IMG/VR virus record: IMGVR_UViG_3300045918_000131
Location: 1 to 64,000 of that record
Source of the DNA: a virus
DNA length: 64,000 nucleotides
Reading direction: 5' to 3' (one strand)
Shown: positions 1 through 62,069 of the stretch, piece by piece
Position numbering within the stretch: position 1 is the stretch's first letter
Layout: every line of letters begins with the position of its first letter
Made by a program: the position numbers and the translations under genes
The notes under the pieces: generated by a model
What the model saw: the letters and a program-made list of their open reading frames with translations, nothing else
What the model was told of the DNA's origin: nothing
Database searches by the model: none

Positions 1-378
1 TGTAACAATGGTGTTTGTTGCATTCTGCGACGGCAAATTGTAATAATTACTAAAAGTGTTTAAATCGGTAACTATTTGAGCAAATGTAGACGACCCAGGT
101 GCATCAACAATTGCAATTACTTGCCCCGCGCCTGTTAACGATGCCGGCATATTATAGTGTTTTGTTACATCCAACGGACTAAGAGTATTGCCTCTGCCGG
201 TACCAACCTTTGCAAAGGATGTCATCATTGGTTCGGCATCAGCAGCGGGCGCGACTGTTGGTGCTGCTAAAGGAATACTATTTGGATTTGCGGCCGTGCT
301 GGTTGTTCCGCCGCCACCGCCACATCCACCAAAGACCAATGCGATTGCTGCGACTAATATAAGATTACGAGTTTTCAT
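1..378 (-). CDS. Lipoprotein, S53/S8 (sedolisin/kumamolisin-like) serine protease, runs off the left edge of the window
   Basis: Not in the ORF track. Manual translation: MKTRNLILVAAIALVFGG|CGGGGG (signal peptide with lipobox-like Cys)...LSPLDVTKHYNMPASLTGAGQVIAIVDAPG...DLNTFSNYYNLP, which matches the S53 N-terminal pattern 'TP.QIR.AYG..GAGQTIAIVDA..DL..F..YGLP'. GGAGG RBS at 386-390. Confidence 0.75.
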   Translation of the reverse strand, partial: MKTRNLILVAAIALVFGGCGGGGGTTSTAANPNSIPLAAPTVAPAADAEPMMTSFAKVGTGRGNTLSPLDVTKHYNMPASLTGAGQVIAIVDAPGSSTFAQIVTDLNTFSNYYNLPSQNATNTIVT

Positions 379-382
379 TTTA

Positions 383-411
383 TTACCTCCATTAAGTTTA
401 AATAAAGGTAA
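383..411 (-). promoter_or_regulatory. SD-sequestering hairpin (riboswitch expression platform)
   Basis: UUACCUUUAUU can pair over 11 bp (including 2 G-U pairs) with AAUGGAGGUAA, which contains the RBS. Confidence 0.65.
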
Positions 412-444
412 AAATGGGTAACGATCAAAACAGTTGAACTTCCT

Positions 445-530
445 GATTTGCAGCTGGCTGGCATGACTTGCGTCGTAGCCCCTCTAGCATTGCGTCACCG
501 ATTTTCACCGGTTTTGCCAAAATTACATTT
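445..530 (-). ncRNA. Cyclic di-GMP-I (GEMM) riboswitch aptamer
   Basis: Minus strand reads GGCAAAAC-CGGU-GAAA-AUCGG-UGACGCAA-UGCUAGAGGGGCUAC-GACGCAAGUC-AUGCCAGCCAGCUGC-AAAU. It matches the GEMM-I consensus (GNRA tetraloop, GACGCAA junction, CAGCCAGYUGC) and lies in the 5' UTR of the protease gene. Confidence 0.9.
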
Positions 531-540
531 GCTTCATTTG

Positions 541-549
541 TATTTATCC
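541..549 (-). promoter_or_regulatory. T4-like late promoter motif GGATAAATA upstream of the riboswitch
   Basis: Variant of T4 gp55 TATAAATA. The same motif precedes structural genes (about 21841, 23626, 28160). Confidence 0.55.
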
Positions 550-677
550 ACTTATTCAATTAAGTGCGAATTTACACATTTGATCTTTTGCGCTTTTCTT
601 TAGCGTATGTGTATATAATAACACCTTTTTGAGTAAATGTCAAGAACTTTATTCAATTTTGGTTGAAATATCTGTTG

Positions 678-35195: not shown

Positions 35196-35377
35196 TATGA
35201 ATATCATAGGACGTATATTATTTGTATTGCTTACTTGGCCTGCAGTAGCGTTTATTGATGTTCCAAATATAGGATGGAGCCTATTTCTAATAGAGATGTT
35301 AGATTTCGTTAGATATGGCGACAAAGAGCTTCCGGAAGAATTTCTGGATAAATAACTATATTAAATGGGTTAAAATT

Positions 35378-35764
35378 ATGCTAAAGGTATTAGTAATCGA
35401 TGACGACAACGCAATATGCTTAATGGTTAGAACTGCATTTTCAGACGAAGATAACTATACTGTCATCGAAGCAAACACGGCTGCACAGGGTCTATTAGAC
35501 ATAATTAAATATGTACCAGATGTCATTATACTTGATGTTCATTTACACGATTGTATTACAGGCATAGACATTCTTAATGCAATAGAGCAGAACAAGACAC
35601 TAAATCACATACATATATTCACAGTTACCTCGTCCGAATATGAATTAGTGTCAAAATCTATTACTTTGGGTGCAGATGATTACTTTATCAAGCCATTTAA
35701 TATCAAAGATCTAGTGTCTGCTGTAAAACGCAAATTTAATCCTAAGTTATTAGATCGAGCATAA
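35378..35764 (+). CDS. Stand-alone response-regulator receiver domain (CheY-like)
   Basis: VLVIDDD, PDVIILD (phosphoacceptor), VTS, GADDYFIKPF; GGATAAATA at about 35346. Confidence 0.9.
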   Translation: MLKVLVIDDDNAICLMVRTAFSDEDNYTVIEANTAAQGLLDIIKYVPDVIILDVHLHDCITGIDILNAIEQNKTLNHIHIFTVTSSEYELVSKSITLGADDYFIKPFNIKDLVSAVKRKFNPKLLDRA

Positions 35765-44037: not shown

Positions 44038-44141
44038 ATGGTTCTTCCTGGGTAATACCCGTCTGGTGATTGTTGTGATGCTTTAACTTTAATATTTTTT
44101 CGTTTGTAAACCATTTATGTGAGTAGCGCAATTTCTTTACA
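44034..44141 (-). pseudogene. Remnant of a free-standing homing endonuclease between the nrdA halves
   Basis: Reads HKWFTNE / KNIKVKASQQSPDGYYPGRTI*, like the 'KWFTNG..N.....P.G...GR' tail of phage homing endonucleases. Its TGA overlaps the ATG of the C-half. Confidence 0.55.
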
Positions 44142-45836: not shown

Positions 45837-47465
45837 TTACATTAAGGACCTGCTAGTGGTGCTGAGTTGAACTACAACATTACTATCTGTATTAATAGAT
45901 GTATACTGTAATACTATCTGTCCGTTACTTACAGTTGGATATAAAGTAACACCAACACCAGTATTTGATTCAATATATTCATCATCGTAAACAATTGATG
46001 ATCCATTAGTTGATATCTTCAATGCACCAGAACGACGTTCTAACCCAGCTGTAATAGAATATTCAACTATTGTAGGACTAAGGTTATAACCTACAATTAA
46101 GTTGTCGTCTTGATTAGTAACATTATTAGATAAAATAACAGTGTTTCCACCAATGCTAAGTTGCCTACCTAACATTACTTGTCCATTAGGTAACGTAGCA
46201 AAGCTTCCGCCAGTGTCATTTAATACAATACCCGGTGTAGCACCTTGATATGATACATCAAACATATCTCCAATACTATAACAATTTTTTCCTGCTAAAG
46301 ACACAGCAGGGCCATTTCCTCCTACATTCTTAAACGTATTAAATGAACTAACAATGTTGGTAACATCTAAACTTGGAGAATTTATTGCTATGTTTGTTAT
46401 GTTATCAAAGGTAACACCTGTTACTTTAACACCTGTAATATTAGTGTTGGGTAATGTTATTCCTGCACTTAGGCAAATACCTTGATATAACGTATCTTGT
46501 GTTCCGCCAATAATATTAACATTTGATAGATTTTTATCGCAGAATACAGAATATGTATTATACCCAAAGTCGCAATTTAAAAAAGTTATATTACTTGATA
46601 AAGTTTGACTTCCGGCTACTGTGCCGCCTGTCCCAATCTTAACACATGCTGAGATATTATTCGATGAAGGTGCTACAGGAATTGCACCTGTTGTATAAGA
46701 TCCTTTCATTGCCACTCTATTAAAATATACATCGGTTACCGAATCAAGATATACTAGCTCGTTAGAAACCTTATTTTGTATAGTTAAATCTTCTATCTCA
46801 AAATATCCAGGGGCTGTTACTGAAGAACTCGATGTCGCAATAGTTCCAGTAATACCAGTTATACCGTTTGAGTCGCAAGAACTTAATGCATAAGGTTGTG
46901 TTGGATCTGTTTGAATTATAAACGTTGAATTTTTACCATCGCCCTTAAGTTTTACATAAGGCAATAGACGAATAAAGTCACCAGATAAATTATACACTCC
47001 TGCAGGCAAGTGAATAGTTCTACGTACCATTGGTTGGTTTGTTAAGTTAATTCCCTGTCTATTAAACAAGTGTTGAATTGCATGATTTAGTGCTGTAACT
47101 TCATTTGCAACTCCGTCGCCGATACCGCCAACATCTCTAAAATTAACAAAATCATCTAATTTATCTTGTAATAATCTAGGGACAGAAATCGGAGAAGTAA
47201 GTGTATATAATGCTTCCCCAGCACCCCAAACTAAAGAGGTTTCAGCACCACTGAATTGATACATTCCGGCAATTTTAAAAATATCACTGTATTGTGTTAA
47301 TATTTCGGTATTACCGAGTACGGGTGTACCTTCGGTTAGTGTACCGTTACCGATGAATAGTTGTCTAGTATCATTTGCCCAACCTAACTCGGCACTTGAG
47401 AGTTGAGGTAAGTCTTCTTGGAGACCACGTCTTACTTGAATGCGACTAATTTGAAGTACTGCCAT
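45837..47465 (-). CDS. Tail/spike structural protein with a beta-helix (pectate-lyase-like) domain
   Basis: ISRIQVRRG..LPQL..ELG N-terminus; LQDKLDD.VN.RD.G..GDG; LPAGVY; GDG. Confidence 0.75.
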   Translation of the reverse strand: MAVLQISRIQVRRGLQEDLPQLSSAELGWANDTRQLFIGNGTLTEGTPVLGNTEILTQYSDIFKIAGMYQFSGAETSLVWGAGEALYTLTSPISVPRLLQDKLDDFVNFRDVGGIGDGVANEVTALNHAIQHLFNRQGINLTNQPMVRRTIHLPAGVYNLSGDFIRLLPYVKLKGDGKNSTFIIQTDPTQPYALSSCDSNGITGITGTIATSSSSVTAPGYFEIEDLTIQNKVSNELVYLDSVTDVYFNRVAMKGSYTTGAIPVAPSSNNISACVKIGTGGTVAGSQTLSSNITFLNCDFGYNTYSVFCDKNLSNVNIIGGTQDTLYQGICLSAGITLPNTNITGVKVTGVTFDNITNIAINSPSLDVTNIVSSFNTFKNVGGNGPAVSLAGKNCYSIGDMFDVSYQGATPGIVLNDTGGSFATLPNGQVMLGRQLSIGGNTVILSNNVTNQDDNLIVGYNLSPTIVEYSITAGLERRSGALKISTNGSSIVYDDEYIESNTGVGVTLYPTVSNGQIVLQYTSINTDSNVVVQLSTTSRSLM

Positions 47466-47532
47466 ATATTATAATCCTTACATGTATCTTATATTTATGC
47501 TTTATCCATCTGGATTGATCTTTTATTTGACA

Positions 47533-48234
47533 TCAAACTAACATTTCATAATATTTTTCAACACGGCGCCACATAATGTCTACGTACTTTGACCATTCTG
47601 CACCTTCTATTACCCATTGTTGGTATTCGCAAGCTCGACTACACATTAAAATAACACCGGTTTGTATATTAGTACCATATAACTTATTATGTGCTTCGCC
47701 GTACATAACTATTTGGATTTTATAATCCTCTACATATTCGTCTTTTTTGGGTTTATTTGTTTGTTTAAAGTCAAATATAGCTTCTTTACCTTTCCAACTT
47801 CCTGCTCCGTCGGTTGACCCAGCATATATTTCCGGATAATATAACGATATTTCATTACCCCAAATCTCATCAAAGTGAGCTAATCCTTCTTTAATAACTG
47901 TTTGCGCCATCGGGTGTGCTATTTGTTGTACTTGATTTGTACCAGGAGGTTTAACTATACCTTGACAGTAATTCTCAAGTATTTTATGCATGGCCGTTCC
48001 AACCCCCGCGGCTTCTGTTGTAATCTGTTGTGCTTTAGAATGACCAACCCAATCGCGCCATTTCTGCAGTGCAGCTTTAGACTCTTCAGATTTGGTTCTA
48101 TCGAGTATAGACGTTACACTTGGAAGATTTCCGGTTCCGGTTTGATAATGTCTTTTACCGTCAATATTAATCCTTGATAATGGTTGGTAATCGAATTTAT
48201 CTATTAAGTTAGGTGAATTATTAATTGTTATCAT
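47533..48234 (-). CDS. PD-(D/E)XK exonuclease (T4-like phage type)
   Basis: LPSVTSIL, GTAMH, E.SL, YAGSTD, DFKQ, Q...Y. Confidence 0.85.
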   Translation of the reverse strand: MITINNSPNLIDKFDYQPLSRINIDGKRHYQTGTGNLPSVTSILDRTKSEESKAALQKWRDWVGHSKAQQITTEAAGVGTAMHKILENYCQGIVKPPGTNQVQQIAHPMAQTVIKEGLAHFDEIWGNEISLYYPEIYAGSTDGAGSWKGKEAIFDFKQTNKPKKDEYVEDYKIQIVMYGEAHNKLYGTNIQTGVILMCSRACEYQQWVIEGAEWSKYVDIMWRRVEKYYEMLV

Positions 48235-48312
48235 GTTATTATTATATCATAATGACAGATAATAAAGCAACATTAATATTAACCTTATTGACAAACTGTA
48301 ATCCAGTCTATA

Positions 48313-48732
48313 TTAATGCTGTCTTTTCTTCAATGCTCTTTTACCCATATTGTTTACAGTCTCTTCTGGGCTCAGGGGTGGGAATTGATTAGTAGCTTGA
48401 TCTGTAGTTTTACTCTCAACATCACTACTGCCTGCTTTTCCGGGGTCTGAAGATAATGTCACTTCATCCTCATTATAATTAGCAATCAATTCTTTGACTA
48501 CCTCATTATTTTCATAAGCTGTACATAGAGTAGAGTAATCAAATGTATTATCGCCTGCATTTTGCACCATTTGAATTAAACTTTTAGTATGAATTTTGGG
48601 TGTCAACTCTTTTTCTTCGCTTCTCTTTTTAAGAAACATCAACACAGGTAACAGATTTACACTTAAAGAATTCTCATCTGATAACTGTTCAGAAGCACTA
48701 ACGTCTTCACTGATAATATCTTTTATTTTCAT
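48313..48732 (-). CDS. Head-associated protein with MKIKDIISED leader
   Basis: The first 29 nt are identical to those of the upstream paralog. Confidence 0.6.
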   Translation of the reverse strand: MKIKDIISEDVSASEQLSDENSLSVNLLPVLMFLKKRSEEKELTPKIHTKSLIQMVQNAGDNTFDYSTLCTAYENNEVVKELIANYNEDEVTLSSDPGKAGSSDVESKTTDQATNQFPPLSPEETVNNMGKRALKKRQH

Positions 48733-49202
48733 TTTCGGTTATTTAATGCGTGTTTAGCCATACCACCAACAGTTCTGACTGTATTTTCTTCGGCTTTTTG
48801 TTGTTGTTTTTCAGGGTCTTCGTTCTTTGCTGTTAATAACCCATCAGTCTTAAACTTAACTTTCTTTAAATCTATAGTATCGATATAATGTTGAATTTTA
48901 GGCGAAGCATTATTTATCTTAACTAGGTCAATATGTGTGAACGGAATCTTTAACTTTGATACTACAGAGTTAATAATAACAGGGGTTTCAATTTCGGTAA
49001 TGGTTTGTGCAATAAGTTTTCTAACGATATTAACGATAGCTTGTTCAACCCTAGGATCTACTTTAGTAGCTGTAGCAACTTCGAGGTCTTCATCTTCAAA
49101 TTCGTTCGTTTCTGGTTCAAGATCTAAAGTATTGGAATCCGGCATTGCAAGATCAAATTCTCTTCTATGCATGTCTTCACTGATAATATCTTTTATTTTC
49201 AT
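48729..49202 (-). CDS. Head-associated protein with MKIKDIISED leader (paralog)
   Basis: Shares the N-terminus and the C-terminal TV..M.K.AL..R with 48313-48732. Confidence 0.6.
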   Translation of the reverse strand: MKIKDIISEDMHRREFDLAMPDSNTLDLEPETNEFEDEDLEVATATKVDPRVEQAIVNIVRKLIAQTITEIETPVIINSVVSKLKIPFTHIDLVKINNASPKIQHYIDTIDLKKVKFKTDGLLTAKNEDPEKQQQKAEENTVRTVGGMAKHALNNRK

Positions 49203-49253
49203 ACTTATTTCCCTCAACTTATTAATTGGTATTTCTATTATTGATGCTATAAC

Positions 49254-49964
49254 TTAACGTCTTTCGCGTCCTACTGGAGCACCCATGGATGGATCTTCTG
49301 ATGTTGCCATATCCGCCGATGGTTCTTCTGCGGTTGCTACATCTCCGTCGGTTGCTATATCCGCAGTTTGTGCATCTCCTGGCATACCCATTGGAGCAGT
49401 CTCTCCTTCGCCCGACAGTGTGCGTGTTGAATTATCTAGTTGATCACGTGCTTGACTTAATTGTTGCAATAGTGTGCCTAATAACTGTCCCACTGAGATC
49501 TTGAATGTGTCGCCCTCAACAGCGCCGATTTGATCTCTGATAGAGTCGATTAACGCTGGTAATTGCTCATTTTGCATTTTACCTACTTTTTCTATCATAT
49601 CCTGAACTGAATCTACCATATCTTTAGCGGCTAACATTACTTCTGCTTGTCCTAGTTCGCCCTCATATATCTTACGTCTTTGCTCTTGTAATTTACGCGA
49701 TTCTTGTAATTTGTAAGCGTCAACCCAACGAGATAAACCTTCGTATACTATTAACATCTCAAGATACTGTGGATCTTGTTCAGCTGTATGTACAGCACTT
49801 GATTTGCGTATTGAATTAACTGTTTCCATAATTTTACCACGCATCGTTTCTGCTTTGCGTAAAGTAATATTATTGTAATTGATTGAGAACCCAAATCTAG
49901 ACTCGATAACTTTGTTAAGTTGCTTTGCTGTAGGGGTTTTTGGGATAAATTGATCTAGTTTCAT
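49254..49964 (-). CDS. Putative prohead core/scaffold-like helical protein
   Basis: LQE motifs, AEVMLAAKDMVD..Q.M.E, acidic tail ending GRERR. Confidence 0.5.
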   Translation of the reverse strand: MKLDQFIPKTPTAKQLNKVIESRFGFSINYNNITLRKAETMRGKIMETVNSIRKSSAVHTAEQDPQYLEMLIVYEGLSRWVDAYKLQESRKLQEQRRKIYEGELGQAEVMLAAKDMVDSVQDMIEKVGKMQNEQLPALIDSIRDQIGAVEGDTFKISVGQLLGTLLQQLSQARDQLDNSTRTLSGEGETAPMGMPGDAQTADIATDGDVATAEEPSADMATSEDPSMGAPVGRERR

Positions 49965-50031
49965 GTTCTTCTTTCCTTAAATATGCATATATGTTATTTA
50001 GTCAAAGTTAAAAAAATTGTAAATTTCTTAG

Positions 50032-50535
50032 TCACTTGATGATAACATACTTTTTAACAATTTCTAAATAACTTAATAGTTCTCGCCTATATAGTTTCAA
50101 ACTATCACTACATGTAGAATAACGACTACTATATAGACTTATTTTAAACTCGTCGTTGTTTATATGTGCATTGTCTAACCTTGCCCTATATAACAACTTG
50201 TCTAAATCTAATTTACTAACTATTCTATCTAATTTAAGTAATGTTTCTGCTTCGATTATTTTATTTAGATGTAATAACGCACAATAAAATATTGCACTAC
50301 GTTTTTCTGTAAAGTCATTATTATTAACATACCAACAGTGATCTGATATCTTTTCTATTAGATAGGTTGCAACTAAAAAATTACCGTTACTTAAAGCAAT
50401 ACATATTGGATATTGACTATTCTTCTGTAGGTCAGATATTTCTTGCCGAGTCCAAGATTTTACTCTAGTGAACCCATATGATTCTATTCTATCCATCGTT
50501 TTAGATGGTTTACCTAATTTTTTTCGTGTATTCAA
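50032..50535 (-). CDS. Hypothetical protein
   Basis: ORF in the late operon. Confidence 0.6.
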   Translation of the reverse strand: MNTRKKLGKPSKTMDRIESYGFTRVKSWTRQEISDLQKNSQYPICIALSNGNFLVATYLIEKISDHCWYVNNNDFTEKRSAIFYCALLHLNKIIEAETLLKLDRIVSKLDLDKLLYRARLDNAHINNDEFKISLYSSRYSTCSDSLKLYRRELLSYLEIVKKYVIIK

Positions 50536-50722
50536 TTTTACCCTGCGAATTCTTTTTTCTTTTTAACACGGATTTACTTACTAGTTGATTTGCTATAATC
50601 TGTTCTCGTTCGTCAAATTTTGATTTCAGTATTACCTGTGTATCATCGAACTTTTTCAGTAGCTCTGATTCCTCATTATTGATCATTATGTTAATTTTAG
50701 TTAATAATTCTACTATTTTCAT
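50510..50722 (-). CDS. Hypothetical protein
   Basis: ORF in the late operon. Confidence 0.6.
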   Translation of the reverse strand: MKIVELLTKINIMINNEESELLKKFDDTQVILKSKFDEREQIIANQLVSKSVLKRKKNSQGKIEYTKKIR

Positions 50723-50731
50723 TTTTTGTTC

Positions 50732-51163
50732 CTAAATTCTTATAGATTCAAAGTATGTATTTGTATCTGGGCCTGATACACAAAATGCATGAGTAGGTAT
50801 AATTACAGACTCGTCTAATCCTAATATTACAGGAACGTTAGTAAAATCCTCTTCCAATGCTCCAAATAAGCTATTTGAATTAGAATATACCGCAGCTTGT
50901 TCAACCCCAAATTTAAAAGTCCATACAGCTTGACTACCTGTAAAATTACTGCCAAATCTAGAGTTAGTAATATTTAATTGTAACACTTCAGGTACACTCA
51001 TTGTTAATAACTGTGTTCGTAATCCTAAACATTGTAATACTGCTTCAAAATTTCGTTGTTGATTACGCTGTTTTGAATTGCCAGCTACTACATTTGTTTG
51101 TGTGATATCTACTAAAGTCCATCCTACAGCTAAGTGCAATAAAATACTATCGTCATTATTCAT
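50732..51163 (-). CDS. Hypothetical conserved phage protein
   Basis: TLVDITQT...RNQQRNFE..LQ..GLR.Q. Confidence 0.65.
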   Translation of the reverse strand: MNNDDSILLHLAVGWTLVDITQTNVVAGNSKQRNQQRNFEAVLQCLGLRTQLLTMSVPEVLQLNITNSRFGSNFTGSQAVWTFKFGVEQAAVYSNSNSLFGALEEDFTNVPVILGLDESVIIPTHAFCVSGPDTNTYFESIRI

Positions 51164-51267
51164 ATTATGAAAATCCTATTAATAGTATTTATTGTCAAAA
51201 ATTTTAGTCAAAATAAAACCCTAATTTTTCAACTAGGGTTTTATAGATCTTCTACGTTATGGTGATA

Positions 51268-51606
51268 TTAAGCAAACATCATTCCGCCAGTACTTGTTAC
51301 TACAGCACCAGTTAAACCAGCAGCAACTACGGCAGCAGTAGCAGCAGCATCACTTGCAAAACCATGTGATTCCATCAATACGCTTAATTGATCAGCATCT
51401 GCTTGATAAGCAATAACTGTACCACCAATGCATAATGCACGGATTGCTGTTTCTACTTGACCGTCAACACCTGTGCCAGCACCAATGCCAGTTAATACTA
51501 CTTTGAAAGCTGTTGGGTGCTTTCCAATACCAGTAGATACAATCTTGCCTGAATCTACGTTTACTACACCCCTTGAATCGCCATGAACGCGTGATAAAAT
51601 AGCCAT
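51268..51606 (-). CDS. Small Ala/Gly-rich, probably abundant virion protein
   Basis: Perfect TATAAATA (51649-51656), AGGAG RBS, own terminator at 51216-51243. Confidence 0.6.
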   Translation of the reverse strand: MAILSRVHGDSRGVVNVDSGKIVSTGIGKHPTAFKVVLTGIGAGTGVDGQVETAIRALCIGGTVIAYQADADQLSVLMESHGFASDAAATAAVVAAGLTGAVVTSTGGMMFA

Positions 51607-51702
51607 TTTTTTCTCCTAATTAAATTGTAGTTAAAAACTACATACACTTATTTATACCGATTGGCATTTAATTAAGTACTATGTTAATTATTACCAAAAT
51701 TA

Positions 51703-52377
51703 TTAGCCAATAACCCAAGGGTCAACGATAACGGGAGTATTATTTCTTAGCATGTAATTACCTTGATGTAAGTCAAAATTCCAACCGTAATCGTATCCTA
51801 TTCTGTCTATATCAAACACTGTTTGAACTAGTAACTCTAAATGTTTTCCTGCTATCTTTTTGAGTTGTTTGTAGTATATTACATTATCAAAAGAACTATC
51901 AAACATATATTCGTAATAACCTTCATGGATGTTCGATCTAGAGTAGTATGCACTATTCTCCGTAATATATTCTGACAGTGATAATAAGGCTTCGCCATAC
52001 TGTCCGGCTTCTGTTAAACGTTCCATACGTATCTGTAGGTACATACGTTCGTCAAATATAAACTTCTCAAAACCATCAAACCTTGGCAAAAAAGGATTGT
52101 TACTATTTTTACAGTAGTTAGCCCAAAATACAAACATCTCTTGATCGCTGCTTAATTGTGAACTACTTTCACCAAACGTGTTGGTTTCTTTTGTTCCAAA
52201 TATTTTAAGTACCTTACCTGTTCCAGGCTCTAAAAAAGCTGTTTGATCGGCTCCAGCAAAACCAAGTTGTTTATATCCTTTTTGACGTAGTACTTTGTAT
52301 ATATCAGAATGTGTGGAAGACTATTCTTCTAGATTTTCTTCCTCAATTATTGATACCTTTAGATCTTGTATTCTCAT
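51703..52377 (-). pseudogene. Protein-kinase-like (APH/ePK fold) gene interrupted by an in-frame TAG at codon 19
   Basis: MRIQDLK...NLEE*SSTH...GFAGADQTAF...VLKIFG...DLHQGNYM...IVDPW. Paralog 59193-59843 has LDEW at the equivalent position. Confidence 0.75.
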
Positions 52378-54587
52378 TTAACTACTCCTTTTGCAACAAA
52401 CATTGTAAAATCTTCTATAGATAACGGTTTACTAAAAAGATATCCTTGATAATACTTACAACCGTAATCAAACAATGTTTGTCTTTGTTCTTCGGTCTCG
52501 ACACCTTCGGCAATAACTTCTAACCCCAAGCCCTGTGCCATTGCTATAATAGTTTTAACTATAGCTTTATCGTTGTTACTGAATTGTAAATCTCTAACAA
52601 AAGATTTATCTATTTTGAGCTGATTTAATGGTAATATTTTTAAATATTGTAAGGAAGAAAATCCGGTTCCAAAGTCATCTAATGAAAAGTGTATACCTAG
52701 TTTCCTTAATTGATTAATGACAGATATTGATGTATCTACATTTTCTAATAATATACTCTCTGTAGGTTCTAATTTAAGCAATGTTGTGTCGAATTGATAT
52801 TTATGTATTAATTTATGTACATTAGATACAAAATTAGGATCTAAGAATTGTTTTGCACTTACGTTAACAGATATAGTTAATTTTTGCGTAGTAACGTCAT
52901 CTTTCCATAGCGTTAGTTGCTTACAGGCAGCTTCTAATACCCAATATCCTATGGGAATAATTAACCCTGTATCTTCTGCTACGGGAATAAAAACTATCGG
53001 AGATATTTCTAATTCTTGTTTATTAGAATTCCATCTAAGTAATGCTTCTGCACCAATTATATTATAATTTTCGTCGACTTGCGCCTGGTAGTGTAATGTA
53101 AACTCATTATTGTCAATAGCTGTTCTAAGTTTACTTTCTATATAAACCCTAGATGTAATATATGCTTGCATTTTTGGATCAAAAAATCGAATTGTGTTTT
53201 TACCTGCCTTTTTAGCTTGGTACATGGCAATATCTGCCTGTCTTAATATATCATCTACTTCACTAGTTTCTTGATTAAACAATGTGGCACCTATACTTGC
53301 AGTTATATTATAACTGCAATTTGGTAATATAATTTCGTCAATTAAAGACGTTAAAATTTTATTACTATATAGTTCTACTTGTGCGGCTGCTACTTGTAAG
53401 TTAACATCTAAATCGTGTAACATAACTACAAACTCGTCGCCGCCAAAACGGGCGACAGTATGTCCTACACGTAAACATTTCTCAATACGCCATGCTACTT
53501 GTTGTAACATAGTGTCCCCAATAACATATCCAAGCGACTCGTTCAAATATTTAAAGTTATCTAAATCTATGAATAATACTGCTCCGTACTTATTATTTAA
53601 CGACGTGTTAGATAAGGCTACCTGTAATCTATCTAATAACAATCTTTTATTAGGTAAACGTGTAAGCGTATCATAAAAGGCTAATAATTGTATTTCATCA
53701 GCAGCATCTTTATTGATTTTAATATCGGTTACTGTAGCGATGTAATTAGTTATAGTACCAAAAGAATTTTTAACAGCGGAAATATGTAAATGTTCTGGAT
53801 ATAACTCTCCGTTCTTACGTTTATTCCATATTTCCCCGCTCCAAAATCCTAGTTTATTAATTTCTGCCCATAGTCTAGTGTAAAATTCTTTCGTGTGTCT
53901 ACCAGAACTAAAGATTCTAGGGTTCTTACCTAATAGCTCGTGTTCTGAAAATCCTGTGATATTACAAAAAGATTGATTTACACGTAATATATTAGCTTGA
54001 GCATCTGTTACTATCATACCAACTTGCGAATTAAAAATCACAGCGGATATCTTCTCTTCTAAGAATCTTTTATTACGATCCGTAATATCATCTAACATCA
54101 TGCATAAAGTTGTACCATTTAACGTAGTCTTTAAACGACAGTTAACTTTACCATGCCTGATTGATTCGTTTAAAATAAAGTCTATATCAATTGAATGTTT
54201 TTGTGTATTATTTTTATCTATCATTATACTATCAAAGAAGTGTATCCATAGATCTTTATCTGCTATATGTTGTTTAAAACAACACCCAATGGCTGTATTC
54301 TTAGTAATTCCCAAAAGTTCGCACCCTGCATTATTGATATCTTGAATTTCACCACTGATCGACAATGAAAGGTAAGCTATAGGAGCAGTTTCAAACATAG
54401 TAACATAATCATCATGCGATTGAATTAATTTTACATGAGATAGCTTTAATTCTTCTAGTTGATTTTTTAACTCAAATTGACATTTTTCGCTTTCACGTAA
54501 AAGACGCTTGTAATTAACGGTTACTGGGTTAGTATCGTTATCTAAGGGGTCACATTTGTTTGTATTTGTGTTGTGGATTTTATTCAT
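52374..54587 (-). CDS. PAS-PAS-GGDEF-EAL diguanylate cyclase/phosphodiesterase
   Basis: Two PAS domains; YDTLTRLPN, FIDLDNFK, ARFGGDEF; EALLRW, VNVS, DDFGTGFSSL, LKIDKSF, AEGVET, QGYLF all intact; GGATAAATA at 54614-54622. Confidence 0.95.
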   Translation of the reverse strand: MNKIHNTNTNKCDPLDNDTNPVTVNYKRLLRESEKCQFELKNQLEELKLSHVKLIQSHDDYVTMFETAPIAYLSLSISGEIQDINNAGCELLGITKNTAIGCCFKQHIADKDLWIHFFDSIMIDKNNTQKHSIDIDFILNESIRHGKVNCRLKTTLNGTTLCMMLDDITDRNKRFLEEKISAVIFNSQVGMIVTDAQANILRVNQSFCNITGFSEHELLGKNPRIFSSGRHTKEFYTRLWAEINKLGFWSGEIWNKRKNGELYPEHLHISAVKNSFGTITNYIATVTDIKINKDAADEIQLLAFYDTLTRLPNKRLLLDRLQVALSNTSLNNKYGAVLFIDLDNFKYLNESLGYVIGDTMLQQVAWRIEKCLRVGHTVARFGGDEFVVMLHDLDVNLQVAAAQVELYSNKILTSLIDEIILPNCSYNITASIGATLFNQETSEVDDILRQADIAMYQAKKAGKNTIRFFDPKMQAYITSRVYIESKLRTAIDNNEFTLHYQAQVDENYNIIGAEALLRWNSNKQELEISPIVFIPVAEDTGLIIPIGYWVLEAACKQLTLWKDDVTTQKLTISVNVSAKQFLDPNFVSNVHKLIHKYQFDTTLLKLEPTESILLENVDTSISVINQLRKLGIHFSLDDFGTGFSSLQYLKILPLNQLKIDKSFVRDLQFSNNDKAIVKTIIAMAQGLGLEVIAEGVETEEQRQTLFDYGCKYYQGYLFSKPLSIEDFTMFVAKGVVK

Positions 54588-54658
54588 TCTATCTAATCAC
54601 TCAATATATTAGTTATTTATCCATTGCGATCAGGATAAGATTACTATATTTGTTAATA

Positions 54659-55525
54659 TTAATAGTTTGTGGACACAGAATCAAGTGTTTTGAGTTTAAT
54701 GACATCATCGCCGTCGGTTGTGTCTGATGTCATCAGGTTCAACGTATTACGTTTGGAATTCTCAGCTAAGTATTCTAATTCAGGTACACGAGTATGAGTA
54801 TTATGCGATCCCAATACTACAACGACACGCTTACCAACAGACGTTATTAGCATTGAAGCAATACAACCACCAGAAGCTCGGATATAACCCGTTTTACTTA
54901 CAATGAATTTACCAGTACCTACATTGTGATTAGTGTTATTAAATACTAACGTTCTAGCATGTATTGACGTCCGATGTCTATGTTTAACATAAATTGCTCT
55001 ACTAATAGTAATAGAAAAAGAAGAAGTAATAGCAGCTTGTTGAACTTCTGGATAACTCTGAGCAGCTATTATCGCTAATACTAAGTCGTTAGCTGTTGAT
55101 ACATTCATTATACTCAATCCTGAAGGTTCAACCAATCTAGAATGTATCATACCTAAATTCTGTACTTTTGTATTTAACGCCCTAATACATGCTTGTCTAC
55201 CTCCAGGATAATAATTACATAACATATCAGCTGCTGGATTATTTGAGCTAACTAACGCCATTTGTATTAATTGACGTCTAGTATAATTTTTAGATACTTT
55301 ATCGTCTAGATCCTGTTTAGCATCTAATACAATCATAACTGTAATTAATTTGCTAATACTTGCTATTGAACGAACTTGATCTGAATTTTCTGATTGAATA
55401 ACTTTTCCAGAATCATCTGTTACTACCCAGGATTTGGCAGTAATAGGTATAGCATAAGCTTGAGCTACTATTGACGACGACAACAACAATAATATAGCAC
55501 TTGCGGTAAGAATTCTAAACATCAC
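54659..55525 (-). CDS. Serine D-Ala-D-Ala peptidase (S11, PbpG/PBP7-like), secreted
   Basis: Signal peptide; SIASISK (SxxK), SSN (SxN), KTG. Confidence 0.88.
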   Translation of the reverse strand: MMFRILTASAILLLLSSSIVAQAYAIPITAKSWVVTDDSGKVIQSENSDQVRSIASISKLITVMIVLDAKQDLDDKVSKNYTRRQLIQMALVSSNNPAADMLCNYYPGGRQACIRALNTKVQNLGMIHSRLVEPSGLSIMNVSTANDLVLAIIAAQSYPEVQQAAITSSFSITISRAIYVKHRHRTSIHARTLVFNNTNHNVGTGKFIVSKTGYIRASGGCIASMLITSVGKRVVVVLGSHNTHTRVPELEYLAENSKRNTLNLMTSDTTDGDDVIKLKTLDSVSTNY

Positions 55526-55718: not shown

Positions 55719-56657
55719 TTACTGTTCTTCTTTCAATGGAGACCACAACATAGATTTACTACCTTTTTTGATAGCATTGAACCCGTTCTTCCGGTAGAAT
55801 CTGGTCAACGCCGCCTGGCTCACTCTACCTTTATCCCAAGGAAATAAGGTTAACACAATACTATCATTATGTGCTAATTGCTTTAATATAGTTAATGCTT
55901 TTTCACCAACCCCTTGTCTTTGCGGATCAGCCATAATCCATTTAATCTCAACTGCATCTTTCTTCGTCATACTTGGCTCTAATTCAAATACTGCAAACTG
56001 CGATGCTTGTTTTTCATCTTCTGGCCTGATATATTTACCAGTTTCATCCCATGCCATTACACGTTGGTTATCAGCATATGGCCATTCTTGAAACTGTGCA
56101 TAGATCTTTTTAATCCACTCTTTAGCTTTATTATTGCCACCAATTTTAATACGTATTGGCTCATCAGGTGTATTATCTACATATGGTTCATATTCTTCAT
56201 CTAATTCCTCATAATCATATTCGCCATTAATTAAATATCCCTTACCACCACAACGAAGACATGTTTCTTCATACTCTATGCCAGATCCATAACACATCGG
56301 GCATTGTTCTTCATCGGCATCTTCGTCTAATTTGTGACAATATCCCGCACCATCTTCATCTAACTCTGTATATTCATCTCGGGCACGGCTTACGTCATTC
56401 ATCTTACGCATTAACGCTAACCCAAGTTCCTCACTTCCATTTGTGTATTCCATAACTGCTTTTGATAAGCGTCTAAACGACATAGTAGCTCTACGTTTTA
56501 ATTCACCAGTTGTTGGGCATTGACCATTAGCATCCATTGGGGAATTTCTGGGACGTAGTGCATCGTTTGCAGCACGTTCTTTTTCGTGTAATACCCAGAT
56601 GTATTCAGGCACAAAACTTGGTGCTATTGTTTCGTTTATTATTTCAGATATCTTCAT
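55719..56657 (-). CDS. Tagged protein: DnaJ-type zinc-finger segment plus C-terminal GNAT
   Basis: MKISEIINE; CPMCYGSG..CLRCGGKG; QRQGVG...L.RFYRKNGF. Confidence 0.7.
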   Translation of the reverse strand: MKISEIINETIAPSFVPEYIWVLHEKERAANDALRPRNSPMDANGQCPTTGELKRRATMSFRRLSKAVMEYTNGSEELGLALMRKMNDVSRARDEYTELDEDGAGYCHKLDEDADEEQCPMCYGSGIEYEETCLRCGGKGYLINGEYDYEELDEEYEPYVDNTPDEPIRIKIGGNNKAKEWIKKIYAQFQEWPYADNQRVMAWDETGKYIRPEDEKQASQFAVFELEPSMTKKDAVEIKWIMADPQRQGVGEKALTILKQLAHNDSIVLTLFPWDKGRVSQAALTRFYRKNGFNAIKKGSKSMLWSPLKEEQ

Positions 56658-56659
56658 TC

Positions 56660-57265
56660 TCAATACCCTTCTTTCTTAGCTATTTCTTTCCACTTAGTGG
56701 TTAAAGCGGCGGCAATATCTACTGGCATTGCCCATCCATTACGTCTCATTATACTTATTAGTTTAACTGCTTGCTCTCTATCACTACTACCTGGCTTACG
56801 TGCATTCGCAAAGTCGTTCTTTAAATCATAATCATTGACATTATCGTCCCATGCACTTACCATGTTTCTACGCAGTCTATCTGCACGGTCTGTTGAATTA
56901 GTTTTACTACTCTTATATACTAATTCTAACCATGGTTCAAGGTAACTACGTCCAGAGTATGTTTTACCTGTACGTTCTATTCCAGATAAGGTTTCTCTTG
57001 GACCTGTAATTGGTACTACTTTGCGGGTATCTTGTAATTGCCAAGCTTTCTTATCTTCATAAAAGTATGTTTTAATACCATGTGTTTTAGCTACTATTAA
57101 TAGTTTTCTAACTGCTGCAGGTATTCCTTCACCCCAATTTTTACGTTCTTTTGCTGTCTCCATAGGCGTAGCATATACATGAATTGCAGTAATACCATTA
57201 CCTACTGGCATTGATGGTTTTTTACTGAAGATTCTATCCTCAAATATAAACTCATTTTCTCTCAT
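56660..57265 (-). CDS. Tagged hypothetical protein
   Basis: MRENEFIFE. Confidence 0.65.
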   Translation of the reverse strand: MRENEFIFEDRIFSKKPSMPVGNGITAIHVYATPMETAKERKNWGEGIPAAVRKLLIVAKTHGIKTYFYEDKKAWQLQDTRKVVPITGPRETLSGIERTGKTYSGRSYLEPWLELVYKSSKTNSTDRADRLRRNMVSAWDDNVNDYDLKNDFANARKPGSSDREQAVKLISIMRRNGWAMPVDIAAALTTKWKEIAKKEGY

Positions 57266-57777
57266 TAATTTGTCCTAGTAACTATAGATCCATCTGTTTG
57301 GATAATTTGAAATTCAATACTCCAATCCTGTTTTGATAACTTTAGCAATATTAACGCTAATGCAGCTTGTGATCCTTCTATACTGTCGTAAAATAAAGTG
57401 TCACCGAAAGAAAATCCAACATTTAAGTTATTTGGAAATCCTGTCTTCTTTCCAGTGATAGTAGATAAAGAATAATCATCATCGGAGTTAATGGGTAGAT
57501 CTTCTAGTTTTAACAATATATCGCTAGTTGTAATTACTACTAGTTTAGCTGCATTAACAAATACTAAACCTATTGGGGAATAAAATCTTCCAAGGCTTGG
57601 TACTACAGTATTATTTTTCTGTAATACAACAAAGTCTTTAGCATTGTTGGCATATTCTTTGTCGTTCTCAAATAAACACGATAATTGAACCTGTGCTAAA
57701 GTTAATACCCCACGACGGATTAAATCTTCATGAATTAGATCTATATGCCTAATAGTAACAAATTCATGTGCTCTCAT
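57265..57777 (-). CDS. Tagged hypothetical protein
   Basis: MRAHEFV; weak similarity to 61608-62069. Confidence 0.65.
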   Translation of the reverse strand: MRAHEFVTIRHIDLIHEDLIRRGVLTLAQVQLSCLFENDKEYANNAKDFVVLQKNNTVVPSLGRFYSPIGLVFVNAAKLVVITTSDILLKLEDLPINSDDDYSLSTITGKKTGFPNNLNVGFSFGDTLFYDSIEGSQAALALILLKLSKQDWSIEFQIIQTDGSIVTRTN

Positions 57778-57780
57778 ACC

Positions 57781-58623
57781 TTAATCCCAATCACTTTCGA
57801 ACGGACTTACGCCGTTTTGATTAATTTTAACTTTTCCTACTAAGGTAAGGACGGCTGGATTAAAAAACGCAGAACTTTCGACATCCCACCCATAAGTGAA
57901 TTCATTACCGCGTCCATAATCATAATGATGCACACAGTCGAAATGCATTGCTACTTGGTCCCATGGAAAATCTGAAGTCATAGACCTATACGATTCTTCT
58001 CGATCATAAAATTTAGTTGCGCCTCTGCCTAACCTATTAAATATGTCGTAAATTTCTTCTGCGTGCTGATCATTGTCCATTTCTAATACAGTTACATTAT
58101 GTGATACTTTATATAAGTACCCGGTTTCATTCATCCACGATGATTGATTTTGTGATACCCATCTGACCCAGTCTGATGTATAAGTGCCGTTGTCTAAACG
58201 TTTTGCTGTACTGGTCCATAATGCAGCATTATACGGTTTATTATTTCCTGGGGGTACATTATTTCGTGCGGCAATAACTGGCGAACCTTCGGATATATCT
58301 TTCTCTAACCCATTAGTTAGATCGTGATCTGGCGATTTATCAGCCCAATCTTGATACGATTGCGCAATTTCGTGGTTATATTCGTCGCCGTCTTTTTCGT
58401 AACGGTACCGGCTACTAATATTATCTAAATGTTTATCATATCTAGATTTTGCACCAGGATGTGGTCTAGGCATGAACAACTGATAAGAATTGGCTGGCAT
58501 TTTACCGTGCCCGTGTTCTTTCCAAAATTGTAATTCTTCATACGCCAAATCAACATCCGTCTTAACTATGGCTTGTTCTTTCTTCTTTCTAGAATATTCT
58601 GTTATAAATTCGTATGCTCTCAT
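57781..58623 (-). CDS. Tagged hypothetical protein (possible ADP-ribosyltransferase-like fold)
   Basis: MRAYEFITE; KP..ALWTS...W..W...GWDVES. Confidence 0.55.
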   Translation of the reverse strand: MRAYEFITEYSRKKKEQAIVKTDVDLAYEELQFWKEHGHGKMPANSYQLFMPRPHPGAKSRYDKHLDNISSRYRYEKDGDEYNHEIAQSYQDWADKSPDHDLTNGLEKDISEGSPVIAARNNVPPGNNKPYNAALWTSTAKRLDNGTYTSDWVRWVSQNQSSWMNETGYLYKVSHNVTVLEMDNDQHAEEIYDIFNRLGRGATKFYDREESYRSMTSDFPWDQVAMHFDCVHHYDYGRGNEFTYGWDVESSAFFNPAVLTLVGKVKINQNGVSPFESDWD

Positions 58624-58627
58624 ATAA

Positions 58628-59191
58628 TTATTCCTCAAATACTAATATATATTTATGTACGTTGTTATCTAAAAAATCAGGATTACTGCTACTTATTGCA
58701 AATAACTTTTGATTCTCTAGACTAGTTATAGGACCTTTAGTATGAACAACGTTACCGTTACCGTCTTCGATATGACATTTAGAGTAAACCGAAGCTAAAC
58801 GCATTAACATTTTATGTGCTCCATCTTTAGTATTTGTATTGTCGGATTCTAGAGATTTTCCGGATTTAAGTAACAGCAATAATACATCGGTCATTTGGAA
58901 ACTTGCGCCGGGCAATTTTCGTATAATTGATAATGCTAACCTAGAATGTTGCGTTGGCATTTTATGCTCTATATGCCCGACGGTTTCTTTTGTATTTAGA
59001 TCAGTTATAAACGTATACCCTGTGATATATGTATACTTACTTAGATACAATACAACTCTGTAACTACCTATATTACCTAATTCTTTAGGCTTCATAAAGT
59101 CATCGTGGTCAATATCGCTTTCGGTCATTCTTGCAAGAATGACGTTATTGTTTGACATCTCATACTCGTTAATGAACTCATGCGCTCTCAT
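58628..59191 (-). CDS. Tagged hypothetical protein (GNAT-like)
   Basis: MRAHEFINE; LESDNTNTKDGAHKM. Confidence 0.55.
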   Translation of the reverse strand: MRAHEFINEYEMSNNNVILARMTESDIDHDDFMKPKELGNIGSYRVVLYLSKYTYITGYTFITDLNTKETVGHIEHKMPTQHSRLALSIIRKLPGASFQMTDVLLLLLKSGKSLESDNTNTKDGAHKMLMRLASVYSKCHIEDGNGNVVHTKGPITSLENQKLFAISSSNPDFLDNNVHKYILVFEE

Positions 59192-59192
59192 A

Positions 59193-59843
59193 TTATTTTC
59201 CTGAATGCCTAGGTACTACCCAAGGATCTAATATTACAGGAACATTACCTCTCATCATAAAATTTTTCTCATGTAAATCAAGATGCCATTTCATCTTTGT
59301 TGAAATTTTTAATAATGAATTGATAGTTGTAGCTAATTTTAATAATCTATCATTTCCTAATGCTTCGTGTAGTGTGTTATAATCCTTGGGGTATCGTACA
59401 TTAAAATAATGAACAATTTTAGGAACATCAAACCCCATCGGTTGTCCTTCTTTAAATTCATCTGCTAATGTCCATGCCGCCCATCCTAATTTGGTTGCTT
59501 GTGTTAACCGTTCCATTCTAATTTGTAAATAAGTACTTTGATCAAATACAAAACGTTCATATCCAGAGAACTTAGGTAAAAATTCATTGTCTACGTTTTT
59601 CATACAGAATTTGGCCCATATTATGAACATTTGTTGATCTCTACTTAATTGTTTACCTTCAGAACCCTTTGTATATGATTTAGTACCAAATATCTTTAAC
59701 ACGTCTTTTGAATTAGGCTCAGAATATGCACTTGCGTCAACACCTTTGCCTATTCCCTTATATCCTTGTTTTGTTAGTTCAACATCGATACTTGGATTAA
59801 AATCGCTCCATTCGTCTAAATTAAACATTTCGTTTAATAACAT
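59193..59843 (-). CDS. Protein-kinase-like (APH/ePK fold) enzyme
   Basis: IGKGVDASAY, VLKIF, MERL, DLHEKNFM, ILDPW. Confidence 0.75.
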   Translation of the reverse strand: MLLNEMFNLDEWSDFNPSIDVELTKQGYKGIGKGVDASAYSEPNSKDVLKIFGTKSYTKGSEGKQLSRDQQMFIIWAKFCMKNVDNEFLPKFSGYERFVFDQSTYLQIRMERLTQATKLGWAAWTLADEFKEGQPMGFDVPKIVHYFNVRYPKDYNTLHEALGNDRLLKLATTINSLLKISTKMKWHLDLHEKNFMMRGNVPVILDPWVVPRHSGK

Positions 59844-59856
59844 AATAACTCACTTT

Positions 59857-60264
59857 TTAATATTTACTAATTTCGCCAGCAAATGCCATACACGATATCA
59901 ACATTATGAATGCAAATATTATCAATAATATATATTTACTTTCTGATACATCTAATACTTCTTCAACATTAATATCTACTTGTATATTGCGTTGAATTGC
60001 ATTACTAATGAATGGTGGTTCTGATATCAAATGAGTATATTCTGAATATAATAAGTCATGTTGTTCGATTAAATCTAAAATTATTTTAGCATGTGCTAAT
60101 GGAAATCCTTGTCTATCTAAACGATTATTAAATCTAGATTCGCTGTTCTGTAATATACCTAACATGTACTTTCTACAATCAGAAGACCCCCAAGTCTGAT
60201 GGATAGTAGCTGAAACATGTGGGTAACGTTTATCAAACTCTACAGGTATTATTATATTGACCAT
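59857..60264 (-). CDS. Membrane-anchored helical domain protein (YPH..WG..RxGFP)
   Basis: Paralog of 62088-62474; C-terminal TM. Confidence 0.65.
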   Translation of the reverse strand: MVNIIIPVEFDKRYPHVSATIHQTWGSSDCRKYMLGILQNSESRFNNRLDRQGFPLAHAKIILDLIEQHDLLYSEYTHLISEPPFISNAIQRNIQVDINVEEVLDVSESKYILLIIFAFIMLISCMAFAGEISKY

Positions 60265-61611: not shown

Positions 61612-62069
61612 TTAACTTCCTTCATAAGTCTCCAATCAGAGAATCTTAAATTAAGTAATACTAAGAAATTATTCTTTTCCTGTTCAGTATTAAATAATAT
61701 AGTTCGCTGAGTATTGTCGGTTACTGGTCCTACTAATTCTGGAAATCTCCGCAACTGACCAGACACTGTATTTTTAACTATTATTTGTCCATTGGAGTCA
61801 ACCGATATAAGAATATGATCATCTTTAATGTCTGCTATTGATAAAAACTTATGTCCTGTGATTCCGGACCACCCTAAAGTAACATAGAAATATGCATTGC
61901 TGATAATAGGATCAAGTTGATAATTAACAATAAAAGTCTGAATTTCATCACCTTCAACTGTACTTTCAATTATGAGACTGTTTTCTAATAGATATTGATT
62001 AAAACCTCGGTTAAATATTAAATTAAATTCGTTAGTAAAGTCTTCGATGATAAATTCGTTAGCTCTCAT
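61608..62069 (-). CDS. Tagged hypothetical protein
   Basis: MRANEFIIE. Confidence 0.65.
   Translation of the reverse strand: MRANEFIIEDFTNEFNLIFNRGFNQYLLENSLIIESTVEGDEIQTFIVNYQLDPIISNAYFYVTLGWSGITGHKFLSIADIKDDHILISVDSNGQIIVKNTVSGQLRRFPELVGPVTDNTQRTILFNTEQEKNNFLVLLNLRFSDWRLMKEVK

Follow-up and report, generated by a model that had tools for sequence, protein, structure and literature searches.

The window analyzed here, the first 64 kb of the 94,248-bp IMG/VR virus record IMGVR_UViG_3300045918_000131 (the whole 94 kb is denoted the contig below), encodes a protein with the PAS-PAS-GGDEF-EAL architecture, which is predicted to both synthesize and hydrolyze cyclic diguanylate (c-di-GMP), and also contains a c-di-GMP-I riboswitch at the head of a protease gene. 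The contig is a fragment of a jumbo phage genome. Both parts are real and phage-resident, and they look functional. Most likely, they represent two host-derived accessory functions placed under one class of phage promoters, and interaction through the common messenger pool is inevitable if both of them are active. With about even confidence, we propose that this jumbo phage carries two cargo parts of host origin that form a de facto pair of a c-di-GMP writer/eraser and a c-di-GMP reader.

In bacteria, c-di-GMP decides between the motile and the biofilm ways of life and controls surface structures that are used as phage receptors, and phages are known to interfere with this messenger by means of small proteins that bind host cyclases. 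A phage endowed with both a sensor enzyme and an RNA reader would be a compact case of a virus that rewrites and also reads a bacterial second messenger.

In the proposed mechanism, the promoter of the cytoplasmic enzyme, with its two PAS domains (one of the flavin type), would be a phage-specific box of the ATAAATA type, similar to the late promoter of phage T4, and the enzyme would reset the cellular c-di-GMP pool during infection. The EAL phosphodiesterase is the better-conserved half of this enzyme, and the cyclase half retains its active site but has lost the product-inhibition site (I-site), so that the PAS input would set the balance between the cyclase and phosphodiesterase activities. 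The riboswitch, located at the 5' end of the mRNA of a sedolisin-type protease, would most likely gate translation via a hairpin that hides the ribosome-binding site (RBS). Given the shared cytoplasm, the riboswitch would read the c-di-GMP level that is set jointly by the phage and host enzymes, hence the de facto writer/eraser-reader pair. Late expression of the enzyme and any selected coupling between the enzyme and the riboswitch are putative.

An earlier note on the window had put forward a c-di-GMP signaling circuit consisting of the enzyme, the riboswitch and a stand-alone receiver protein. As detailed below, this interpretation is partly supported.

The PAS-PAS-GGDEF-EAL enzyme

The gene and its domains, all on the minus strand, are the following.

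52374..54587, minus strand: PAS-PAS-GGDEF-EAL gene, 737 aa (P0001; open reading frame (ORF) and Pfam)
54084..54410, minus strand: PAS1, aa 60-168 (PF00989, 27.3 bits against a cut-off of 22.6)
53721..54053, minus strand: PAS2, PAS_9 type, aa 179-289 (Pfam, 1.2e-20)
53196..53681, minus strand: GGDEF, aa 303-464 (Pfam PF00990, 1.6e-39)
52425..53132, minus strand: EAL, aa 486-721 (Pfam PF00563, 1.4e-69)

The Pfam search and inspection of the motifs confirm the description in the earlier note of an intact PAS-PAS-GGDEF-EAL gene that possesses the catalytic motifs and has RVGH in place of RxxD. No signal peptide and no transmembrane segment were seen in the protein, which is thus predicted to be cytoplasmic. 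The match of the GGDEF domain to PF00990 scores 135.7 bits against a cut-off of 23.8 (138.8 bits in a six-frame search). The A-site of this domain is intact (RFGGDEF), the DxD, FK..N and GD positions align with those of MorA, and K463 occupies the position equivalent to R446 of PleD, which is a conservative change. The I-site signature RxxD, which is typical of the GGDEF family although not obligatory, is missing: five residues ahead of GGDEF, the phage protein has RVGH, with a D376H replacement. The EAL domain matches PF00563 with 234.5 bits (cut-off 31.3) and has a complete catalytic set, namely EALLR514, N575, EPTE607, DDFGTG637, KIDKSF658, EGVE694 and QGY714. For the GGDEF-EAL tandem, the best match among solved structures is MorA from Pseudomonas aeruginosa (4RNH, 2.8e-103), with the catalytic positions aligned throughout. 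Both catalytic domains look competent, and the protein is predicted to be an active enzyme. The possibility that the GGDEF domain belongs to the Hypr type, which makes cGAMP, was considered and rejected given that the Asp at the GD position is kept, as judged by the Hypr signature.

With regard to the sensor part, the top structure matches of PAS2 are PAS-A of MmoS (3EWK, 2.6e-24) and PAS1 of NifL (2GJ3, 1.1e-16), both of which bind FAD, followed by LOV domains and the PAS domain of Aer; by sequence, PAS2 falls within the NifL/MmoS-type flavin clade of PAS_9. For PAS1, a sequence search of the PDB retrieved no solved relative. The PAS input is most likely redox sensed via a flavin; the redox signal suggested in the earlier note gains some support from the homology of PAS2 to the FAD-binding domains of MmoS and NifL.

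The riboswitch and the protease gene

The second part is located at the beginning of the window and includes the following features.

446..528, minus strand: c-di-GMP-I (GEMM-I, RF01051) aptamer (Rfam, 56.6 bits against a gathering score of 35)
376..416, minus strand: 41-nt hairpin (-12.2 kcal/mol) in which the GGAGG ribosome-binding site is paired, a candidate expression platform (folding)
615..643, minus strand: sigma-70-type promoter-like site upstream of the riboswitch (TTGACA-17 nt-TATTAT, 11/12, with a TG extension)
1..378, minus strand: first 126 codons of the gene for a lipoprotein protease of the sedolisin (S53) type, truncated at the contig end (homology)

The c-di-GMP riboswitch reported in the earlier note was recovered by Rfam over the full model (positions 1-87 of 87, with two non-canonical pairs) and is the sole Rfam family found in the whole contig. 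The aptamer is genuine, and ligand binding can be predicted from its sequence. It lies 68 nt upstream of the protease ATG (position 378), on the same strand. No terminator-like site was found near either the riboswitch locus or the GGDEF-EAL locus; because none follows the aptamer, translational control is the likely mode of action. In addition, the aptamer segment GGUGAAAAU is complementary over 9 bp to the anti-RBS strand (-8.5 kcal/mol), which hints at an OFF switch but carries too little weight to be relied upon.

The protease starts with a lipoprotein signal that includes the lipobox FGGC. A full-length homolog (P0123, 429 aa, encoded on a 1975-bp contig) is 90% identical across the 126 residues present in the window and matches kumamolisin (1T1E) over the whole catalytic domain (6.6e-24), with the SGDSG and GGTS signatures visible; in Pfam, P0123 matches Peptidase_S8, a family of the same clan. 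Scans of IMG/VR and metagenome contigs with P0123 detected homologs only at 37% identity or less.

Riboswitches of the c-di-GMP-I class were identified in 4 of the 5 genomes that hold the closest homologs of the enzyme (Methylotenera, Gallionella, Sulfuricellaceae and a Nitrosomonadales metagenome-assembled genome), and in two of these homolog-bearing genomes, the riboswitch is located directly upstream of the gene for a PAS-domain protein. Thus, this class of reader RNA is native to the candidate host group.

The shared promoter-like box

The two parts, as well as the receiver gene discussed below, are preceded by the sequence GGATAAATA, located by motif search at the following positions.

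54614..54622, minus strand: GGATAAATA box, 26 nt upstream of the GGDEF-EAL ATG
541..549, minus strand: GGATAAATA box, 12 nt upstream of the aptamer
35346..35354, plus strand: GGATAAATA box, 23 nt upstream of the receiver ATG

This sequence is present in 8 copies in the window compared to 1.6 expected, and none of 100 shuffles reaches 8. The contig contains 10 copies, 8 of which are located 23-37 nt before a start codon in the sense orientation, and one of the ten heads the riboswitch leader. The 166 kb of the sister phage G001 also contain 10 copies, compared to none for the reversed control pattern, and distant relatives have two each. Thus, GGATAAATA is a real, lineage-specific regulatory element that resembles a promoter. 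Its ATAAATA core matches TATAAATA, the consensus of the T4 late promoter, in 7 of 8 positions, with G replacing the first T; the box is plausibly a late promoter, as judged by this similarity.

The earlier note had stated that a common motif precedes the three loci, and this is the case; however, the motif is not specific to them. It also precedes a gene resembling baseplate gp9/10 (21879), a structural gene similar to those of tail fibres (23672) and unannotated genes at 18788, 28193, 61608 and 72486, that is, at least six genes beyond the GGDEF-EAL gene, the riboswitch and the receiver. The box marks about 6% of the contig genes and does not define a c-di-GMP regulon. The co-expression inferred in the earlier note gains from the reality of this lineage-specific box and from its presence before tail- and baseplate-like genes, but, given the near-consensus sigma-70-type promoter at the riboswitch, strict co-timing does not follow. 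The accompanying statement that the enzyme gene is embedded among phage late genes is not supported: its neighbors are a gene for an S11 peptidase with a signal peptide and unannotated genes.

Further promoter-like sequences are discernible in these phages. In G001, five or six of the ten copies of GGATAAATA (L259, L260, L266, L267 and L268) are followed by an ATG within 3-6 nt, a spacing that fits transcripts starting about 6 nt past the box and may imply leaderless mRNAs. Other variants of ATAAATA precede other genes of the contig (CATAAATA-taagat and gc-TATAAATA). A repeated context, gaaaaatgcTATAAATA followed by gttgccgatggt, is found in two copies (10187-10194 and 15351-15358, minus), and another one, aagCATAAATAtaagat, occurs at 18723-18730 and 47492-47499 (minus), upstream of two genes, one tape-measure-like (900 aa) and the other Mtd_N-like (542 aa). 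These repeated contexts of the ATAAATA core suggest the existence of several promoter subclasses. Near-consensus sigma-70-type promoters (at least 11/12) number 14 in the contig compared to approximately 6 expected, and several of these sites are intergenic and located upstream of replication genes.

Relatives of the phage and the case for unrelated cargo

The relatives of the phage were defined as 30 IMG/VR records that are linked to the contig by DnaB (53-67% identity) or by the clamp loader (54-83%), and include G018, a 99%-complete genome of 353 kb. A lack of co-occurrence of the parts among relatives was one of the outcomes that, according to the earlier note, would refute its circuit, and no co-occurrence was found: among the 30 related records, G018 included, there are 0 matches to GGDEF and 0 matches to RF01051, the aptamer search being one that recovers the riboswitch in the genome of the window itself (positive control). 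A tail and replication block (25891-32434) is syntenic in four relatives, and the synteny stops before the receiver gene. The enzyme, the riboswitch and the receiver are lineage-specific cargo of variable regions.

Beyond these relatives, at least 217 IMG/VR contigs encode homologs of the GGDEF-EAL protein, many of them being proviruses or containing the gene at a contig edge. Among the 49 such records that were searched, the c-di-GMP-I aptamer is present in only one, a provirus, which indicates that the combination of the enzyme with the riboswitch is not a recurrent phage design. In this provirus (G045, sequence L246), the aptamer (38628-38712, minus, 74.8 bits) is located about 390 nt upstream of the provirus's own GGDEF-EAL gene; this region may be host flank.

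Several large IMG/VR records hold interior, GC-matched copies of the GGDEF-EAL gene with intact motifs. One example is G038 (184 kb, 24% GC, jumbo-phage-like, with the sister record G040), which encodes an intact 713-aa PAS-PAS_9-GGDEF-EAL protein (L175:9575-11716). This protein is 38% identical to that of the window, keeps the I-site (REND), and is encoded by an interior, GC-matched gene whose neighbors belong to PHROG phage families, among them phrog_22605 and a split RNA ligase carrying an HNH insert; no c-di-GMP-I riboswitch was found in G038. Taken together, G038, G040 and the other interior copies indicate that capture of this enzyme architecture by jumbo phages is recurrent but its pairing with the riboswitch is not.

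Under the first alternative, the two parts are unrelated cargo: the riboswitch arrived together with the protease and reports the biofilm or planktonic state of the host; the enzyme acts on host functions, for example motility, pili, matrix or receptor display; the box stands for one transcription class; and no coupling has been selected. We regard this as a real possibility, although one that falls short of an even chance. A precedent exists in a high-GC, bacterial-looking metagenome contig in which a c-di-GMP-I (RF01051) aptamer (74.2 bits, L135:157-242) is located upstream of a gene for a 36%-identical S53 protease homolog (968-1987); the combination of riboswitch and protease is thus known from at least one cellular source and might have been acquired whole. 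The GC3 of the protease fragment (0.34 compared to a phage mean of 0.247) suggests a separate, later acquisition. To this can be added the distance of about 52 kb between the two loci, the lack of both parts in the relatives, their co-occurrence in a single one of the 49 enzyme-bearing viral records and the sigma-70-type promoter that the riboswitch has of its own. What argues against unrelated cargo is that there is one cytoplasmic messenger pool, so that cross-talk is unavoidable if both parts are active, and that both parts carry a phage-specific box that is present at only about 6% of the contig genes.

The spacing of the loci, the empty relatives, the rare co-occurrence and the second promoter all weigh against the de facto pair itself, and so do four further observations. 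The box precedes at least seven loci besides the enzyme and the riboswitch. In thermodynamic folding, the ribosome-binding site is paired with the aptamer constraint on or off, so that the folding demonstrates no switching mechanism. Only 27% of the phage genome is in hand. Finally, the divergence of the GGDEF domain, described below, could signal relaxed selection. Should the parts prove to be unrelated cargo, the finding shrinks to two ordinary host-derived accessory genes. What makes the pair attractive for experimental work is the loss of the I-site, the recurrence of the enzyme architecture in an unrelated jumbo phage and the presence of a protease as a measurable output.

Divergence of the two catalytic domains

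The RxxD signature that is replaced in the phage enzyme is kept in 110 of the 113 closest GGDEF-bearing homologs, usually as REGD. Divergence was measured at alignment columns with a conservation of 90% or more across the homologs. In the GGDEF domain, the phage protein deviates at 9 of 74 such columns (12%), compared to a bacterial mean of 2.8%, and only one of 112 homologs is as high; in the EAL domain, it deviates at 6 of 101 columns, which is inside the bacterial range. The changes in the GGDEF domain are mostly conservative (R/K, D/E and T/S exchanges) and include D376H, H354Y and R330L. In our reading of these patterns, the EAL phosphodiesterase would be under normal constraint, and the cyclase half would be either retuned, with the feedback inhibition removed, or slowly relaxing.

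The same data can be accommodated by a second alternative, in which the protein is a phosphodiesterase only, the GGDEF domain being a drifting regulatory domain that senses GTP, and the phage lowers the c-di-GMP level late in infection. We consider this a real possibility, although less likely than not. The normal conservation of the EAL domain is compatible with this view, as is the position of the GGDEF domain, off at 12% of the conserved columns, in the top 1% of the family; moreover, many PAS-GGDEF-EAL proteins, such as RbdA and RmcA, are net phosphodiesterases (PMC8846402). Conversely, the GGDEF signature and the aligned residues that bind the substrate and the metal are intact, and the changes are for the most part conservative. 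MorA, the nearest relative with a solved structure, has been reported to be bifunctional.

At the other extreme is a stronger version of the de facto pair, in which a lytic jumbo phage runs a circuit of its own: a redox-gated, feedback-insensitive enzyme expressed from a late-type promoter, and a riboswitch that drives an envelope-anchored sedolisin aiding release or dispersal, such as escape from the matrix of a biofilm, with the architecture repeatedly captured for this purpose by independent jumbo phages. We consider this version unlikely.

Origin and residence of the enzyme gene

Homologs of the enzyme were sought among 5.8 billion clustered proteins and, in a second scan, in species-representative genomes. 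The closest relatives among the clustered proteins are only 46-58% identical, and all their named sources are bacterial (Sideroxydans, Sideroxyarcus, Gallionella, Methylotenera, Nitrosomonadales and Ferrovum); the species-representative genomes yielded Gallionella, Methylotenera, Nitrosomonas, Sulfuricellaceae and Sulfuritalea at 57% identity or less. A tblastn search of phages with the enzyme produced hits that are all below 40% identity and mostly come from records that are actually bacterial; an IMG/VR pattern search with the single protein found nothing, and Megablast of the 50-58 kb region against the INPHARED phages gave zero matches. By these similarities, the enzyme gene is an old capture from a betaproteobacterial lineage, which likely represents the host range as well.

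The gene has a GC content of 31.6% and a GC3 of 22.6%, compared to contig means of 35% and 24.7%, respectively. Its relative synonymous codon usage correlates with that of the rest of the contig (r = 0.947), in contrast to values of -0.57 to 0.17 against the nearest bacterial homologs, the genomes of which have 37-60% GC. The combination of approximately 53% amino acid identity with complete GC amelioration implies that synonymous sites are saturated relative to the host homologs. The genes at 45837-52137 are collinear with those of the sister phage G001, and the synteny returns at 62476; given this synteny on both sides, the GGDEF-EAL and S11 genes belong to a variable stretch of cargo that is flanked by conserved blocks of phage genes. 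The GGDEF-EAL gene is a long-resident phage gene, not misjoined host DNA, which upholds the view taken in the earlier note. The remaining alternative, that the GGDEF-EAL segment or the contig end with the riboswitch was misjoined through chimeric assembly or host contamination, could draw on the exclusively bacterial origin of the closest enzyme homologs and on the location of the riboswitch within 530 bp of the contig end, but is highly improbable in view of the codon usage and GC content, which match the phage and not the homologs, the phage-specific GGATAAATA boxes 26 nt and 12 nt upstream of the gene and the aptamer, respectively, the syntenic phage genes on both flanks and the uniform GC profile.

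The receiver

The third member of the circuit proposed in the earlier note is encoded on the opposite strand.

35378..35764, plus strand: single-domain response-regulator receiver, 128 aa (P0121; Response_reg PF00072, 4.5e-19)

The identification of this protein as a stand-alone receiver with a phosphoacceptor Asp is borne out: PF00072 matches with 69.1 bits against a cut-off of 30.2, and DD8-9, D53 (the phosphoacceptor), T82/84 and K105 align to the KdpE receiver. The role assigned to it in the circuit is not. Neither a histidine kinase (HATPase_c) nor PilZ was found in the 94 kb, i.e., in 27% of the genome, and host kinases may supply the partner; a word-indexed protein search detected no relatives of the receiver. 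The only tie of this protein to the enzyme and the riboswitch is the GGATAAATA box, and no fewer than seven other loci have this box as well. As a CheY-like domain of a generic, orphan kind, the receiver is treated as a separate item of cargo, the membership of which in a c-di-GMP module is not supported.

A sigma-70-type site (34759-34786, plus strand) is located about 590 nt upstream of the receiver gene. Among the 30 relatives, a single Response_reg match was detected, in G001, where it belongs to a 230-aa receiver-membrane protein, the gene for which lies about 100 nt behind a GGATAAATA box; this protein was considered as an ortholog of the receiver from the window and rejected at 19% identity.

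The contig and the neighborhood of the enzyme gene

CheckV estimates the completeness of the 94,248-bp record at 27%, which implies a genome of roughly 350 kb. The contig encodes replication proteins (clamp loader, DnaB-like helicase, primase, a second helicase and ribonucleotide reductase with an intein) together with virion and lysis proteins (a GroES-like head-morphogenesis protein, PAAR/endolysin proteins, and tail-fibre and baseplate-like proteins). The host is probably a freshwater or groundwater betaproteobacterium. A full-length DnaK/Hsp70 homolog (7830-9752, minus strand) shows about 64% identity to proteobacterial DnaK and is 46-52% identical to the copies in Lak phages and other huge phages. 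The large subunit of ribonucleotide reductase is split over two ORFs (42910-45740, minus strand), the second of which opens with a signal of an intein-splicing domain; this arrangement points to an nrdA gene that is split or interrupted by an intein.

Directly upstream of the GGDEF-EAL gene (54659-55525, minus strand) is the gene for a D-Ala-D-Ala carboxypeptidase of the Peptidase_S11 family (1.4e-31) with a signal peptide, which is a further piece of envelope-directed cargo in the same variable segment. Many of the proteins encoded around the GGDEF-EAL gene (48313-49217 and from 55719 to 62069, with an extension up to contig position 66459) have in common an N-terminal tag, MRA(H/K/N/Y)EFI..E or MKIKDIISE, and are otherwise unrelated in their bodies; the GGDEF-EAL protein and the S11 peptidase lack this tag.

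Comparison with known systems

The phage enzyme resembles MorA in that the GGDEF-EAL parts align end to end, with the catalytic motifs of both domains conserved, and MorA likewise lacks RxxD at the I-site position. The structure 4RNH was deposited as a GGDEF-EAL motility regulator. MorA is a bacterial membrane protein with several PAS domains, whereas the phage protein is soluble, viral and has two PAS domains. In terms of architecture, PAS_9-GGDEF-EAL, the phage enzyme is also similar to AxDGC2, RmcA and the bifunctional CdgF, which exemplify redox control of c-di-GMP enzymes by PAS_9-flavin domains (PMC8846402). These are cellular proteins, and flavin binding by the phage PAS2 is a prediction, the likeness being one of architecture. 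We know of no phage enzyme of the sensor GGDEF-EAL kind that has been characterized.

The sedolisin-type protease that the riboswitch precedes has a full-length homolog with a catalytic domain like that of kumamolisin and sedolisin (S53; 1T1E and 1GT9). It differs from these enzymes in having the lipobox FGGC and a Gly/Ala/Pro linker instead of a long pro-domain. Apart from the phage, a protease of this type preceded by a c-di-GMP riboswitch was encountered only in the high-GC contig described above.

In the earlier note, phages were said mostly to hijack host cyclases, as is indeed the case of the phage peptides that bind the host cyclase YfiN (PMC8085984), but this statement understates the prior art. 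According to a 2023 review, few c-di-GMP elements are known on phages. PMC10333796 cites a c-di-GMP-I riboswitch in the Clostridioides difficile phage PhiCD119 and a GGDEF-only protein encoded by the Pseudomonas phage YuA. A diguanylate cyclase is present in a Mu-like marine virus (PMC7785012), and megaphage G has an annotated probable DgcQ-like cyclase (PMC12484599). Similarly to the enzyme described here, the latter two are host-derived genes of c-di-GMP turnover that serve as viral accessories; neither is known to have been studied biochemically, and, compared by annotation, they are cyclases only, with no riboswitch reported. In the literature searched, in which journal coverage is partial, no paper was found that reports a sensor GGDEF-EAL enzyme together with a c-di-GMP riboswitch in one and the same phage. 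The suggestion in the earlier note that the system is undescribed thus applies to the pairing of the enzyme with the riboswitch but not to its components, given the published phage GGDEF genes, the published phage riboswitch and the same enzyme architecture in an unrelated jumbo-phage contig. PhiCD119 and YuA each possess one c-di-GMP part, whereas this apparently lytic jumbo phage has a sensor-GGDEF-EAL enzyme and a riboswitch in one genome, behind the same promoter-like box. Thus, both kinds of parts were known from phages before, and the presence of both in one phage is a new combination.

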